Virus genome (UHGV): UHGV-1341087
Direction: 5' to 3' (one strand)
Length of the DNA stretch: 8,274 bases
From: a virus
The stretch's first letter is position 1; every line of letters starts with the position of its first letter. The position numbers and the translations under genes are program-made. Below the pieces are notes generated by a model that was not told the origin of the DNA, searched no databases, and saw only the letters and a list, made by a program, of their open reading frames with translations. This document shows, piece by piece, positions 1-8,150 of this stretch.

Positions 1-53
1 GCACCGTCATGGGGTGTCGGGGGTCGGAGGTTCAAATCCTCTCGTGCCGACCA
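1..53 (+). tRNA. proL: tRNA-Pro (anticodon GGG likely), 3' partial; the 5' ~24 nt lie upstream of the window
   Basis: T-arm GGAGG-TTCAAAT-CCTCT, acceptor 3' strand CGTGCCG, discriminator A and CCA end at 51-53; a GGG triplet sits in the apparent anticodon loop (11-13). From memory this matches the enterobacterial proL sequence; not verified by search. Confidence 0.78.
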
Positions 54-2436: not shown

Positions 2437-2600
2437 GTATCGACGCACACGCACACCTTATCAATGGTGGGCTGTATGGGGCTGACTTCGGTCAGGCTGG
2501 TTTCCTTTTGCGCCAGTTGTGGTAACCCTGTACAGTCCACCGCCAGCGAGCTTACCACCTCCTGCGGTGGGTATATCCCAACGCAAAAGGAGGCTGCCAA

Positions 2601-2996: not shown

Positions 2997-3284
2997 ATGA
3001 AAGTAAAAAATTCTGGCTTTACTGCCAGCGGTAAAACTCGTCCTAAATTCATGCACGGCGATATTTACCGCGATAAATACGGCAGCACGGTAATGATTAA
3101 GGGCGTGAGTGAACGACGCATTACCTACCGCCGTGAAGGATACAAATATGACTGCGTGATGCCTGTTTATCAGTTCCAGCGTGATTTTACGCTGGTGGAT
3201 CATCGTGAAACCGTAAATCAGAACCGTGCAGCAAGATACATCCGCAAAATCCGCGAAATGATGGTTACTGGGGGCAAGAAATGA
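2997..3284 (+). CDS. Hypothetical basic protein, translationally coupled to the primase/helicase gene
   Basis: 95-aa ORF; its TGA stop overlaps the downstream ATG (ATGA at 3281-3284); weak RBS, so the exact start is uncertain (alternative ATGs at 3049 and 3093). Confidence 0.55.
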   Translation: MKVKNSGFTASGKTRPKFMHGDIYRDKYGSTVMIKGVSERRITYRREGYKYDCVMPVYQFQRDFTLVDHRETVNQNRAARYIRKIREMMVTGGKK

Positions 3285-5416
3285 AACGCGCACCGAACTT
3301 AAAGCACCAGCCAGCCGACAAAATGACGGAGGTTATCATTTTTGCGGGTAGTGATGCGTGGAGCCATGCGAAAGAGTGGCAGGAATGGGCAGGTAAGCAT
3401 ATTGCCGCCGACAATGTGCCGCCTGTCGTTCTGTCAGATGAACACCTGAAAGATATTACCGGTTATCAGATTATTGATGATAGCCGTCAGTGTGTGCGTG
3501 TTTACCGCGCAGGGCACATCACTGAACGTAGCCTTACACAGATCGTCACATTGCTGGCTGTGGCTGGCGTGAAGACCGTATACGAATATGCGGGAATAAC
3601 TGACACCAGCCCGGCGGATTTATCCGACCAGTTGCCTCGCCTCAAAGACGAATACGAGCGCGGGGAAAGTCTGGTGTTGCCCTTAAAGAAAAAAATCACA
3701 GAAAGCCAGGGCGATGATGAATTAAAACCCCGCGTTGAAAGTCGCGCCGATGGTGTTTTCTGGGTAACGCCCAAAGTTGACAAACAGTCAGGCGAAATTA
3801 TCCGGCCTGAGACGTGGTTATGTTCCCCGCTTGAACTACTGGGAACGGGAACAATCGGTAAAGAGCATTACCGCGTGATGCGCTGGAAAAAACCGGCAAA
3901 CCATGAATCCATCACAATGGCGATCCCGTGTGGTGGCATTGGCGACCGTGACGGCTGGCGGTTGCTTAAAGATCACGGCCTGAACGTGACAACAAACGGC
4001 AAATACAGGGCTATCCTGGCTGACTGGATGCAGTTAAGCGGAAACCATGAGGAATGGCAGTTAAGCACAACAACGGGGTGGCATTTTGGCGCGTACATCA
4101 TGCCGGACGGTTCAGTCATTGGTGAGTCTGAAAAACCGATCCTGTTTACCGGAAAAACGGCAGCCGTTAATGGTTATTCCGTAGCAGGAACGGCGGAGGG
4201 CTGGCGCGATACCGTGGCGCGACTGGCTGGTGGTAATCCGTCCATGATGCTGGGTGTGGCGGTATCGTTATCAGCACCATTAATCGGGCTGGTGGGCGCT
4301 GACGGCTTCGGGGTACATCTTTTCGAACAATCATCAGCAGGGAAAACCACCACACAGAACATAGCATCAAGTTTATGGGGAGAGCCGGACGCGCAACGGC
4401 TGACCTGGTACGGAACGGCGTTAGGTATCGCCAACGAGGCAGAGGCACACAACGACGGGCTGTTACCCCTAGATGAAATAGGCCAAGCCGGAAACGCACG
4501 GGAGGTGTCCACGTCGGCTTATACGCTGTTTAACGGTTCGGGGAAATTACAGGGGGCGAAGGACGGCGGCAACAGGGAGATCAAACACTGGCGCACGGTG
4601 GCAATCAGCACCGGAGAAATGGACGTTGAGACATTCCTCAAAACGGAGGGGATAAAAGTCAAAGCGGGGCAGCTTGTCCGCCTGCTTAACGTGCCGATGG
4701 AGAAGTCTACGCAGTATCACGAATACAGCACAGGAAAGGCGCACGCAGACGCGTTAAAAGCCGCCTGGACAGAAAACCACGGGGCGGCGGGTCGTGAATG
4801 GGTTAAATGGCTGGCAGCCCACCAGCAGGAGGCTAAGGACACGGTAAGGGCGTGTCGTGAACGGTGGCGCAACCTGATACCGGAGTGCTACGGCGAACAG
4901 GTTCATCGCGTGGGGGAACGATTCGCCATACTGGAGGCCGCGCTTGTGCTGTCCGGTCATGTTACGGGCTGGAATGTTCAGACGTGCCGTGATGCCATTC
5001 AGCATAACTTTAATGCCTGGGTGAAGGAGTTCGGCACGGGTAACAAGGAACACAGGCAGATTATTGAACAGGCAGAAGCATTTCTTACTGCCTACGGCAT
5101 GAGCAGGTTTGCGCCTGTCAATTATGACCCTGCAAGCCTGCCGATTTCAGAACTGTACGGCTACAGGGAAAGCGAGGGGCGTTACGGTGAGCCTGTTTTG
5201 TTTTACGTCCTGCCGGAGCCATTTAAATCGCATGTGGCGAAGGGATTTAACAAGGATGCCGTAGCAAGAGCCCTTCACGAAGCCGGAATGCTGAAAAAGC
5301 CAGCCAGCGGGGAAGGATGGCAAATCAGAACACCACGTCTTAAGCACATGAAGGGGGCACGACTAAGGGTGTACGGCCTTTTACTTGCACAGGATCATGA
5401 TGATGAAGGTGGTTAA
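3281..5416 (+). CDS. Replication protein, primase/helicase-like P-loop NTPase (toprim-like N-terminus plus DUF927-type P-loop domain; functional analogue of P4 alpha)
   Basis: 711-aa ORF. Walker A GADGFGVHLFEQSSAGKTTT (about nt 4325-4354) and Walker B-like LLPLDEIG (about 4459-4482); N-terminal EVIIFAGSDAW...IIDDSRQ resembles a degenerate toprim fold. Domain names are from recall, not from a search. Confidence 0.88.
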   Translation: MKRAPNLKHQPADKMTEVIIFAGSDAWSHAKEWQEWAGKHIAADNVPPVVLSDEHLKDITGYQIIDDSRQCVRVYRAGHITERSLTQIVTLLAVAGVKTVYEYAGITDTSPADLSDQLPRLKDEYERGESLVLPLKKKITESQGDDELKPRVESRADGVFWVTPKVDKQSGEIIRPETWLCSPLELLGTGTIGKEHYRVMRWKKPANHESITMAIPCGGIGDRDGWRLLKDHGLNVTTNGKYRAILADWMQLSGNHEEWQLSTTTGWHFGAYIMPDGSVIGESEKPILFTGKTAAVNGYSVAGTAEGWRDTVARLAGGNPSMMLGVAVSLSAPLIGLVGADGFGVHLFEQSSAGKTTTQNIASSLWGEPDAQRLTWYGTALGIANEAEAHNDGLLPLDEIGQAGNAREVSTSAYTLFNGSGKLQGAKDGGNREIKHWRTVAISTGEMDVETFLKTEGIKVKAGQLVRLLNVPMEKSTQYHEYSTGKAHADALKAAWTENHGAAGREWVKWLAAHQQEAKDTVRACRERWRNLIPECYGEQVHRVGERFAILEAALVLSGHVTGWNVQTCRDAIQHNFNAWVKEFGTGNKEHRQIIEQAEAFLTAYGMSRFAPVNYDPASLPISELYGYRESEGRYGEPVLFYVLPEPFKSHVAKGFNKDAVARALHEAGMLKKPASGEGWQIRTPRLKHMKGARLRVYGLLLAQDHDDEGG

Positions 5417-5441: not shown

Positions 5442-5577
5442 CTTGTCCCACCTGTCCCAACCTGTGAAAAACACACATAACACACTGAATTATACTGGGT
5501 TACATCAGAAAAAGTGGGACAAGAGCGGGACAAGTTAAGGTGATTTTGGGACAAGTTAGGAGCATTTTGGGACAAGT
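5442..5577. repeat. Iteron-like array A: six copies of a TTGTCCCA(C) motif (2 direct, 4 inverted) around an AT-rich spacer
   Basis: cttgtcccac (5442-5451), ctgtcccaac (5452-5461); inverted gtgggacaag (5514-5523), cgggacaagt (5526-5535), tgggacaagt (5547-5556 and 5568-5577, 21 bp apart). Lies in the 235-bp gap between the primase and ssb genes. Confidence 0.6.
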
Positions 5578-5651: not shown

Positions 5652-6077
5652 ATGACGGCACAAATATCAGCTTACGGGCGGCTGGTGGCTGACCCGCAGT
5701 TAAAGACCACCAGCAAGGGAACACCAATGGCGCTGGTGAGTATGGCTGTTCCCCTTCCGTGCAGTCAGGCATATGACGGAACAGCGACGATGTGGTTATC
5801 CGTCCTGGCGTTTGGCAGACAGGCCGATGCGCTGGCAAAACACCAGAAAGGCGAACTGGTGAGCGTGGCGGGTAACATGCAGATAAGCCAGTGGACAGAC
5901 CAGAACGGGGAAATGCGACAGGGCTGGCAGGTCATCGCAGACAGCGTAATCAGTGCGCGAACCGTACGACCAGGAGGCAGGAAAGGACAGCAAGGGCAGG
6001 CTACTGACGCACTGAACAGGGCAAAGCAGCAGACGGGCCTGCAGGATGCCCCATATGAGGACGAAATACCATTTTAA
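5652..6077 (+). CDS. ssb: Single-stranded DNA-binding protein (SSB-like, short form)
   Basis: 141-aa ORF with an OB-fold-like N-terminal pattern (W..V..FG..A...KG..V...G....W.D..G..R) and a C-terminal acidic tail ending DAPYEDEIPF, matching the canonical SSB tail (...DDDIPF). Confidence 0.85.
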   Translation: MTAQISAYGRLVADPQLKTTSKGTPMALVSMAVPLPCSQAYDGTATMWLSVLAFGRQADALAKHQKGELVSVAGNMQISQWTDQNGEMRQGWQVIADSVISARTVRPGGRKGQQGQATDALNRAKQQTGLQDAPYEDEIPF

Positions 6078-6112: not shown

Positions 6113-6649
6113 ATGACTACACTGACTATTAGCAGAAAACCGAAAGGCATTTACGGCATACCACAGAAAAAGACACAGACGACACAGCAGCAGGATAAAA
6201 CCACATCAGCGCATAAAGTGATACCCGGCAATCAGAACGCACCGCAGAGCCGCAAACAGAAGCCCACAGGGGCGACACCGTGGCGGCATATGACCAAACG
6301 CCAGGGCAAAAACCGCAGGCGCGTTAACCGTCTTATTGAACTATGGCCTGAATTATTCAGCCTGGAATCACCGAAGCCGCTTAAGGTAGGGATATTTGAA
6401 GACCTGATACAGGATATTGCCGTCAGGGCGCTGGCTTTTGGGTCAGGGGCATTACGTGCGGCGCTAGCATCTTATGCTCATTCTCCGGGTTATTACCGTG
6501 CCTTAATGGCTGGTGGCGTGCGTTACGATCTGAATTGCCAGCCATGCGGTGAGGTGACACAACAGGAACAGCAGGACGCGGAAGCACGACTGATGGCACT
6601 GAAAGAGAAGCGCAAACGTAAGTCGAACAAGGAACAAGCTGGCGTATGA
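6113..6649 (+). CDS. FinO/ProQ-domain RNA chaperone-like protein
   Basis: 178-aa ORF with a K/R/Q-rich N-terminal extension followed by RVNRLIELWPELFSLESPKPLKVGIFEDL...YRALMAGGVRYDLNCQPCGEVTQQE, closely resembling the ProQ/FinO domain (compare ProQ ...KPLKIGIFQDL... RVDLDGNPCGEL...). Confidence 0.85.
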   Translation: MTTLTISRKPKGIYGIPQKKTQTTQQQDKTTSAHKVIPGNQNAPQSRKQKPTGATPWRHMTKRQGKNRRRVNRLIELWPELFSLESPKPLKVGIFEDLIQDIAVRALAFGSGALRAALASYAHSPGYYRALMAGGVRYDLNCQPCGEVTQQEQQDAEARLMALKEKRKRKSNKEQAGV

Positions 6650-6930
6650 GTATGATTCACGACAGTAAAGCGGAAGATCTGGAGGCTAAAGGCCTGTACC
6701 GGAGAGCGGCGACCCGATGGGCTGAGATCATGCAACAGGTGAACACCGATAAGGAGCGCGAACAGGCAGTAAAGCGTCGCGCGGAATGTATCCACAAGGC
6801 AGCACGTTCGCCCGTCATGCTGGATAATTTCGGGGGCTTGAGAGAGGCAGCAAACCGCACACAGGCGGATATGGGGATAGAAATCGCAAAATCTGTCTGG
6901 CGGAACTACCAGACAGACAAAGTTTTATAG
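6646..6930 (+). CDS. PerC-family-like small transcriptional regulator (tentative)
   Basis: 94-aa ORF whose start overlaps the finO-like stop (ATGA). The motif AEDLEAKGLYRRAATRWAEIM recalls PerC/Pch-type activators common in enterobacterial prophages; family assignment from memory only. Confidence 0.6.
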   Translation: MSMIHDSKAEDLEAKGLYRRAATRWAEIMQQVNTDKEREQAVKRRAECIHKAARSPVMLDNFGGLREAANRTQADMGIEIAKSVWRNYQTDKVL

Positions 6931-7727: not shown

Positions 7728-7853
7728 ACTTGTCCCACCTCCCCCCAACTTGTCCCAAAACAGCCTAGACTTGTCCCACCTTACCTAATTTATTTCTAAC
7801 AAAATCAATTTGTTAGGTGCTAGCGGGACAGGTGGGACGGGTGGGACGGGTGG
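7728..7853. repeat. Iteron-like array B: three direct ACTTGTCCCA copies at ~21-bp spacing, AT-rich spacer, then three inverted GGGAC(A/G)GGT copies at 9-bp periodicity
   Basis: acttgtccca at 7728-7737, 7748-7757 and 7769-7778; gggacaggt / gggacgggt / gggacgggt within 7825-7851. Same core motif and same direct-then-inverted polarity as array A. Confidence 0.6.
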
Positions 7854-8126
7854 TTTTGTATATATATACGAAAAATTGCATTCAGGAGGGGGGCGAAATT
7901 CCTGCAATCCATTACTTATGGAACTGTCCGCCCCGTCAAATTTTTACGCCCGCGCAATTAAAAAAATGCGTCACGCAGGTGGGCATGATGCCGATATGCT
8001 TGTCGGGTTCAGCTTTTTAAGGCGGCTGTAGATGTCAGGTTATCCGTGCTCATCCACCAGCCAGCTTCATAGCGGATAGCCGGAAAATGGTAACGGTTAA
8101 AGCTGTACATTTTTGCAGCAAATCAT

Positions 8127-8150
8127 TTTAGTTATACGTTTAGATATACG
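8127..8150. repeat. Second tandem pair of the TTTAGTTATACG 12-mer (candidate integrase arm-type sites near the distal end)
   Basis: tttagttatacg (8127-8138) and tttagatatacg (8139-8150); 22 of 24 positions identical to 174-197. Confidence 0.4.

Follow-up and report, generated by a model that had tools for sequence, protein, structure and literature searches.

The DNA considered here, an 8,274-nucleotide stretch of the UHGV virus genome UHGV-1341087 (the window, at its full length), corresponds in RefSeq genomes to a whole island of ~8 kb that adjoins tRNA-Pro between the genes yejM and yejO. At its centre, positions 3281-5416 of the plus strand hold a complete gene, already called by a first-pass annotation of the sequence and confirmed here. 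It encodes a 711-aa protein that open reading frame (ORF), Pfam, PHROG, homologue and RefSeq evidence identify as a DUF927 replication initiator-helicase, the 'Pri-Rep' or Rep of satellites. The protein is annotated in RefSeq as WP_032353618.1 and matches PHROG 1139 (E 2e-166), and more than 2000 homologues were found, every one of them named DUF927. It is an ordinary member of the described DUF927 class with no recognisable primase domain, and very probably acts as the self-loading replication initiator-helicase of a small satellite island of the phage-inducible chromosomal island (PICI) type beside tRNA-Pro.

DUF927 (PF06048) is the only family that the Pfam search returned, with no Toprim, D5_N or P4 alpha-type family beside it. 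The match covers residues 168-435 (E 3e-46, 158.8 bits against a cut-off of 22.6) and spans profile positions 15-283 of 284. The corresponding region (3782-4585; all protein features are on the plus strand) comprises a β-rich collar, whose strands at residues 151-289 are modelled with a predicted local distance difference test score (pLDDT) of 80-90, and the first half of the ATPase. The best match among PDB sequences is 8tch, which aligns over residues 209-606 with an E of 1e-14 for the single sequence and 6e-19 for the family profile; its deposit name, 'Pathogenicity island protein', suggests that it is Rep2 or the Rep of SaPIbov1, a Staphylococcus aureus pathogenicity island (SaPI). The second is 5dgk, the Cch helicase of the staphylococcal cassette chromosome SCCmec (profile E 1.6e-4, positions 304-705 aligned). 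Published work relates DUF927 and Cch to the SaPIbov1 Rep (Rep2) class with its MCM-like (superfamily 6, SF6) ATPase. It describes the Cch/SaPI Rep class as self-loading 3'-5' initiator-helicases, with hexamers and ATP-dependent 3'-5' helicase activity known for Cch and SaPI Reps, and with a C-terminal winged helix that binds iterons just 3' of rep (PMC7581432, PMC9371898; details of Cch are second-hand, through these two papers). A role of DUF927 as a mobile-element helicase had also been predicted (PMC5862659).

The alignments with these solved structures and with 27 homologues of 61-91% identity, in all of which (27/27) the Walker A, Walker B and STGE motifs are invariant, delineate the motor. 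The Walker A or P-loop motif SSAGKTTT (residues 351-358, 4331-4354) contains the invariant residues G354, K355, T356 and T357 and aligns with STGKT of 8tch and STGKS of Cch. The Walker B motif LLPLDEIG (residues 394-401, 4460-4483) contains the invariant D398 and E399 and aligns with the acidic pair of 8tch and vfDEl of Cch. Both motifs, which the first-pass annotation had picked out, are real; the P-loop stands, its placement in the C-terminal half does not, as the motor motifs lie mid-protein, at 49-56% of the length. Further on, AISTGE (residues 441-446, 4601-4618; S443, T444, G445 and E446 invariant) aligns with ISTGE of 8tch and ISTSE of Cch and, lying after Walker B, might occupy a sensor-1-like position. 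It is followed by a family-conserved helical domain (residues 485-605, 4733-5095), with helices at 485-604 and the 8tch alignment reaching residue 604-606. The DUF927 family and the solved replicative-helicase relatives bear out the earlier view of a replication protein with a P-loop motor. The 'distinct primase-helicase lineage' that had been proposed with it is the already described DUF927/Cch/SaPI Rep2 initiator-helicase class.

Directly 3' of the gene lie repeats with the hallmarks of a replication origin (ori). There are 12 copies of the sequence GGGACRRG, where 0.94 would be expected, and all of them fall within 5442-5577 and 7728-7853, so the iteron arrays reported earlier at these positions are genuine. 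The first origin half (5442-5577, unstranded) begins 26 nt past the DUF927 stop codon. It consists of two minus-strand iterons 9 nt apart at 5442-5458, an AT-rich spacer of about 50 nt (~5466-5514), and four plus-strand iterons at 5516, 5527, 5548 and 5569, with spacings of 11, 21 and 21 nt. The second half (7728-7853, unstranded) is its mirror image, with three minus-strand iterons at 7729, 7749 and 7770 (spacing 20-21 nt), an AT-rich spacer, and three plus-strand iterons at 7825, 7834 and 7843, 9 nt apart. PICI origins are known to lie 3' of the replicase and to consist of two iteron sets around an AT-rich region (PMC6092414), and the published layout matches the first half (PMC6092414, PMC9371898). 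A survey of 80 species-representative loci and three others recovered the same architecture in about 60 related loci, where it starts 22-30 nt past the stop codon and is built on differing iteron sequences. Among the 9-mers TGAACCAAC is the commonest, others being TGAGACAAC, TGGGACAAC/G, TGGGATAAG, TGGTACAAC, TGAACCACG, TGAACCGA, TAACCCGC, TAACCCAC and TAACCCGT. The family has about 15 iteron variants, paired with variants of the C-terminal domain and its wing.

This pairing delimits the part of the protein that is likely to read the origin. The last ~90-100 residues of the relatives fall into discrete types that track the iteron sequence, and on this co-variation and a profile alignment with Cch we delineate a C-terminal specificity domain (residues 612-705, 5114-5395), predicted to be a winged-helix iteron reader with its wing segment at ~655-700. 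Across 2145 pairs from 66 loci, which are phylogenetically non-independent so that the numbers are descriptive, the area under the curve (AUC) for predicting 'same iteron' rises from 0.78 for identity in the core (residues 150-600) to 0.93 for residues 625-711 and 0.96 for residues 655-700. In the same set, pairs that share an iteron have higher C-terminal identity within every bin of core identity. Individual loci illustrate the point: the protein of the window and that of locus L002 share 96% identity over the core and 30% over the C-terminal domain, and their iterons are GGGACAAGT and ATAACCCGC, respectively. Likewise, the replicases of L040 and L045 have cores that are 97% identical and differ mainly in the wing (GYQRKSPRIDGRQ vs GYQGRVREDGRQ), with iterons TGAACCAAC vs TGAGACAAC. 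This comparative evidence points to the C-terminal domain as the determinant of iteron recognition. Since the iteron tracks the last ~90 residues far better than it tracks the core, the iteron-binding domain would be this short tail and not the last ~250 residues, which had been the earlier candidate: the C-terminal link to the iterons holds, and its extent is narrowed to ~90 residues. Nor are the last ~250 residues devoid of recognisable features, as had been stated, for ~480-606 is the conserved helical domain aligned with 8tch and only the last ~90-100 residues are variable. The winged-helix assignment draws on the family profile, which aligns the tail with the C-terminal DNA-binding part of Cch in the longer Cch alignment, and on the position of the domain and the literature.

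A separate observation concerns four near-isogenic replicases, those of L040, L045, L046 and L049 (core identity 96-97%), in which a short wing reading GYQRKSPRIDGRQ or GYQGRVREDGRQ goes with the iteron TGAACCAAC or TGAGACAAC, as seen in the C-terminal ~50 residues and the 450 nt past the stop codon. The difference in the wing looks like a natural specificity switch.

The same body of evidence bears on whether the protein replicates DNA at all. The family name, still 'domain of unknown function', could be taken to suggest a P-loop ATPase with no part in replication, such as an NTPase of defence or packaging whose place beside repeats is incidental, and so could the NCBIfam Cch1 model, which the protein matches only below threshold (36 vs 700 bits). 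However, its homologues of solved structure are replicative helicases, the iterons begin 26 nt past the stop codon and vary together with the C-terminal domain, a gene for a single-stranded DNA-binding protein (SSB) adjoins, and the paralogues are fused to primases; this alternative is scarcely credible.

In the N-terminal part of the protein, residues 1-127 (3281-3661) form a four-strand α/β module in the position that the primase occupies in the paralogues, and when modelled alone the module gives a confident β-α fold (pLDDT 90, predicted TM score 0.85). It is joined to the remainder by a length-variable linker (residues 128-148, 3662-3724), modelled at pLDDT below 50 over residues 135-145 and rich in indel columns. 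This linker is where one N-terminal module is swapped for another: in tblastn searches most relatives, including the long forms described next, match the query only from residues 127-148 onward. ORFs reconstructed at the 80 species-representative loci divide into 17 short forms (~700-740 aa, like the query), 49 long forms (~900-950 aa) and 14 that are truncated or ambiguous. The long-form paralogues, which come from satellites of Enterobacterales, resemble the query in their 57-69% identity from residue ~146 to the end, in their ori architecture and in their C-terminal types. In contrast, where the query has its 130-residue module they have a zinc ribbon (CPxCGG...CxxCG; Zn_Ribbon_Prim, 4e-13) and a Toprim_3 domain (2e-16). 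They contain the motifs AEG[LY]ATA, akin to the EGYATA of P4 alpha, and ADNDxxxxxNxG, neither of which is present in the 711-aa protein, so that the first-pass failure to find EGYATA by eye is upheld. The long forms are true primase-helicase fusions. A third N-terminus, with PriCT_2 in the ~340 residues before the same DUF927 core, is found at L074 and L080 and suggests a primase of the archaeo-eukaryotic (AEP) type.

An alternative, in line with the first-pass annotation, is that the N-module is itself a primase, which would make the protein a bifunctional primase-helicase whose N-terminal ~130 residues are an active, very divergent Toprim-type enzyme making the primers of the island. The module sits exactly in the slot of the Zn-ribbon/Toprim or AEP/PriCT domains of the paralogues. 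Its most conserved loops (FAG.DA after strand 1 and AG after strand 3) would fall at the topological positions of the EG and DxD motifs of Toprim, and fragments of such proteins are named 'DNA primase' by their sources. The first-pass annotation had likewise described a toprim-like pattern E...G.D and DD. The Toprim motif, as Aravind, Leipe and Koonin reportedly set it out in 1998, has a Glu (EG) that ends strand 1 and a DxD after strand 3. The residues E17, G23, D25, D66 and D67 do exist in the protein but form no such signature: E17 precedes strand 1 instead of ending it, the residue before G23 is Ala, strand 1 ends in F-A-G and strand 3 in R-A-G, and the DxD position reads R/x-A-G. D66-D67 is not conserved in homologues, and E17, D25 and D44 are not retained in those of Pasteurellaceae; once these are included the invariant residues of the module are G23, P48, L51, L56, G78 and A93, none of them acidic. 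A catalytic core of the DnaG type is about twice the size of this ~125-residue module.

Profile and structure comparisons point in the same direction. No Toprim, zinc-ribbon, AEP or other primase match was obtained when three divergent N-modules were compared with Pfam at E<=10, against 2e-16 for Toprim_3 and 4e-13 for Zn_Ribbon_Prim in the long-form control of the same scan. The comparison of the N-module with the family's own Zn-ribbon/Toprim region by hhalign gave a probability below 1% in every mode (local, greedy and global), both with the tool alignments and with larger trimmed ones of 69 and 45 sequences. Homology between the two regions is thus unsupported, and a by-eye alignment that pairs FAG with AEG, RAG with DND, and ENWxxYL with ADWNDY is for this reason a lead only. 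Foldseek with the N-module found nothing significant in the PDB, the best match (E 0.07) being a non-primase. Because there is no acidic invariant, the strands end in F-A-G and R-A-G, and the Pfam, hhalign and Foldseek comparisons were all null, we conclude that the module most probably lacks a primase active site; a Toprim-derived fold is possible but unproven.

One functional result is relevant to the same question: the pri-rep gene and ori of EcCICFT073, whose product carries the same N-module, sustain helper-free plasmid replication in E. coli (PMC6092414). This would favour an active primase, but plasmid replication in E. coli can use the host DnaG. The Rice laboratory has moreover warned that such helicases are often wrongly given the label of primase (PMC10061031). 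Altogether a primase in the N-module seems unlikely, and the helicase without a primase of its own is preferred.

A full scan of 1.84 billion representative proteins recovered only 90 cluster representatives that carry the N-module, and just three records of a phage collection do so. Full-length carriers combine it with four unrelated motors, namely DUF927, superfamily 3 (SF3: D5_N, DUF5906, Pox_D5), VapE/VirE and AAA_25 (RepA/DnaB-like). Besides the window (3281-3661), instances are found at L086:10242-10650 and in the proteins P0189, P0191, P0195 and P0217. The N-terminal slot of all four helicase families typically holds a primase (PMC5862659). Outside Enterobacterales the short architecture extends to Pasteurellaceae (38-41% identity), and debris is an unlikely explanation for a module that is portable and kept over this range. 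It is read most simply, although speculatively, as a non-catalytic adaptor, for example for the host primase. It is possible, and we put this forward tentatively, that the N-module is a previously undescribed portable 'primase-slot' domain that Gram-negative satellites use on four ATPase classes, either as an adaptor or, less likely, as a stripped-Toprim minimal primase. In that case many PICI Pri-Rep proteins of Gram-negative hosts would carry a 'Pri' that is no primase. The adaptor would bring in a primase of the host or the helper, or some other host factor, once the helicase has loaded itself, whereas the less likely minimal primase would be of a new type.

The N-terminal peptide M-K-x-A-P-N-[LV]-K (residues 1-8, 3281-3304) is also kept from Enterobacterales to Pasteurellaceae, where the rest of the module is weakly similar; it may be a docking motif.

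The surroundings of the gene are those of a satellite. The order of features is P4-type integrase, AlpA, C4 antisense and isrK RNAs, an Icd-like gene, a 61-aa ORF, DUF4222, DUF927, SSB, ProQ/FinO and PerC. An integrase, alpA, a replicase with a 3' ori, uniformly rightward genes and a specific att site, the features by which Gram-negative PICIs have been defined (PMC6092414, PMC10111431), are all present. The DUF4222 gene (2997-3284, plus strand; identified by Pfam) ends in a stop codon that overlaps the ATG of the DUF927 gene (ATGA, 3281-3284). From this overlap and a GGGGG run 7-11 nt 5' of the DUF927 start, the two genes can be taken as one operon. DUF4222 also lies directly 5' of the replicase in EcCICFT073, again with a stop/start overlap, and in L002. 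It precedes 8/22 of the short and 16/49 of the long replicase forms, and the idea that it is a dedicated partner of the short N-module was rejected since both forms are preceded by it. On the 3' side, the island encodes its own SSB (5652-6077, plus strand; Pfam SSB, E 2e-16), a gene that also lies 3' of the replicase in EcCICFT073 and L002. SSB has been assigned to the replication zone of such elements, with DUF927 included in their 'Primase' family (PMC10111431).

The island is present at >=80% coverage (at least 80%) in 53 of 5426 complete E. coli genomes and also in E. albertii. It has no terminase and no recognised interference gene by Pfam and PHROG, and relatives carry such genes. One might regard the protein as a decaying remnant in a defective island, a former primase-helicase that has lost its primase and replicates nothing; the small size of ~8 kb with neither capsid nor packaging genes, an 'ash family' pseudogene in the island and the splitting of the iteron sets by 2.15 kb would fit such decay. 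Against this, the DUF927 ORF is intact and 96-99.8% conserved at the DNA level in the 53 E. coli genomes, whose hosts are varied, and the gene is 99% identical in E. albertii. Every ATPase motif is invariant, and the short N-module form is maintained across the taxonomic range given above. Complete capsid-forming satellites use the short form, as homologues P0005 (87% identity) and P0057 (65%) occur in satellites that encode capsid, protease, portal and connector, and the N-module is also part of the functional EcCICFT073 replicon (PMC6092414). Decay is thus a very unlikely explanation.

Several other features of the island and its relatives deserve mention. Rfam detects an isrK RNA and a C4 antisense RNA above the gathering score (55 and 78 bits; 2359-2435 and 2460-2547, plus strand), a pair that resembles the P4-type immunity RNA and its target and lies inside the RefSeq 'ash family' pseudogene. 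A protein with a ProQ/FinO domain, extended at its N-terminus by a long basic stretch (6113-6649, plus strand), is followed by a PerC-family regulator (6646-6930, plus strand) whose start overlaps the ProQ/FinO stop; the two genes are cargo or regulatory and unrelated to replication. PerC genes, along with four allelic Pri-Rep variants, have been reported in PICIs, and their PerC homologues are reported to activate the locus of enterocyte effacement (LEE) in some strains (PMC6092414). ARAGORN finds no tRNA in the window, because the window (1-53) opens partway through tRNA-Pro, in its 3' part. The island is flanked by a direct repeat of 39 nt (159-197 and 8112-8150), imperfect but containing the exact 12-mer TTTAGTTATACG; at the right border no exact copy of the tRNA 3' end was found, just the 12 exact nucleotides within the imperfect repeat. 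In L002, positions 1-1494 encode one called product with terminase-large-subunit and integrase domains, which suggests that this satellite sits within the terL gene of a prophage, like the helper-embedded PICIs of PMC10111431.

Taken together, and by analogy with the characterised relatives, these observations suggest how the protein might start replication of the island. The C-terminal ~90 residues, as a predicted winged helix, would read the 9-bp iterons (T)GGGACAAG(T) in their opposed sets around AT-rich spacers, presumably without ATP. Hexamers would then assemble on both sides of an AT-rich spacer and melt it, after which the MCM-like AAA+ motor (K355; D398/E399) would translocate 3'->5' and unwind the island DNA after excision, with the island SSB coating the displaced strands. 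As we could discern no primase active site in the protein itself, priming would most likely fall to the host DnaG, or else to an enzyme of the helper phage; this is speculative. The 130-residue N-terminal module, in the slot of a Zn-ribbon/Toprim or AEP primase, would most likely be a non-catalytic adaptor or structural domain, a role that is equally speculative.

Certain points weigh against this account. Its biochemical steps are carried over from Cch and the SaPI Reps, which are staphylococcal proteins. The co-variation statistics are built on the non-independent pairs described above. In the full-length AlphaFold2 model pLDDT drops below 50 over the ATPase core (residues 340-476) and over the C-terminal domain, and the model was discarded for both. 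On the MCM-like AAA+ fold the observations are this low confidence and, even so, Cch as the sole significant Foldseek match of the full-length model (E 3e-7). The winged-helix fold of the C-terminal domain is a prediction that the model (pLDDT below 50) does not support structurally, and a profile of this domain alone found nothing among PDB sequences but one chance match. The second iteron set lies 2.15 kb from the first, beyond ssb, proQ, perC and a 69-aa ORF. Most related loci instead have both sets adjacent, no more than 300 nt from the stop codon of the replicase, so that here only one of the two may serve as the functional origin, and any meaning given to the second is speculative. Finally, neither Pfam nor PHROG reveals a packaging or capsid gene in the 8-kb island, and its mobility is putative.

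The main value of the analysis is a correct annotation: the protein is best described as a PICI-type DUF927 initiator-helicase, and neither as a primase-helicase nor as P4 alpha. The natural code that links iteron and C-terminal domain, near-isogenic switches included, makes origin recognition and satellite incompatibility directly testable. The occurrence of the N-module in four helicase classes, including the EcCICFT073 replicase, raises the question of how these satellites are primed and whether Gram-negative Pri-Rep proteins deserve their 'Pri' label.

Among the known systems, P4 alpha, a Toprim-type primase with EGYATA joined to an SF3 (D5-like) helicase, follows the same general plan: it replicates a satellite and combines a helicase motor with a domain at the C-terminus that binds the origin. 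At the level of the island the resemblance extends to the P4-like integrase, the AlpA/Vis-like and Icd-like genes and the C4/isrK immunity RNAs. Nevertheless, the 711-aa protein has no EGYATA, no Toprim HMM match and no D5_N or Pox_D5; because this SF3 domain and the EGYATA motif are missing, membership of the P4 alpha/SF3 group was rejected, in agreement with the first-pass view that the protein is something other than P4 alpha. PICI Pri-Rep and P4 alpha have also been treated as sequence-distinct in the literature (PMC6092414).

Cch of SCCmec type IV (5dgk) is a fellow member of DUF927 (PMC7581432), and its profile alignment with the query runs from the ATPase to the C-terminal DNA-binding domain. 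Unlike the query, with which it shares ~14% identity, it has no N-module of this kind, its partner is the small ssDNA-binding protein LP1413, and its cassette is moved by serine recombinases and is not a phage satellite. The SaPIbov1 Rep and SaPI2 Rep2, to which the best match 8tch belongs if its name is a guide, share a DUF927-type MCM-like motor alignable with query residues 209-606, an ori of oppositely oriented iterons around an AT-rich centre directly 3' of the gene, and a C-terminal domain that sets ori recognition (PMC9371898, PMC7581432). The alignment with 8tch is however patchy (HMMER mean posterior 0.77-0.84), with E values of only 1e-14 to 6e-19. The query also differs from the SaPI Reps in its Gram-negative host, in its 9-bp iterons as against 5-6 bp, in the extra ~130-residue N-module, and in the absence of a separate pri gene upstream of the DUF927 gene.

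A further counterpart is encoded by EcCICFT073, the model Gram-negative PICI. Its Pri-Rep, at 584 aa, is built on an SF3 motor (D5_N, DUF5906, Pox_D5) unrelated to DUF927 and is associated with GGTAGAYA-like iterons. Yet it carries the same N-module (40% identity over 164 residues, E 9e-27) and has the same placement and logic of the ori (PMC6092414). It lies in an element with the same order int, alpA, ..., icd-like, ..., DUF4222, Pri-Rep, ..., SSB, PerC, followed there by capsid genes.

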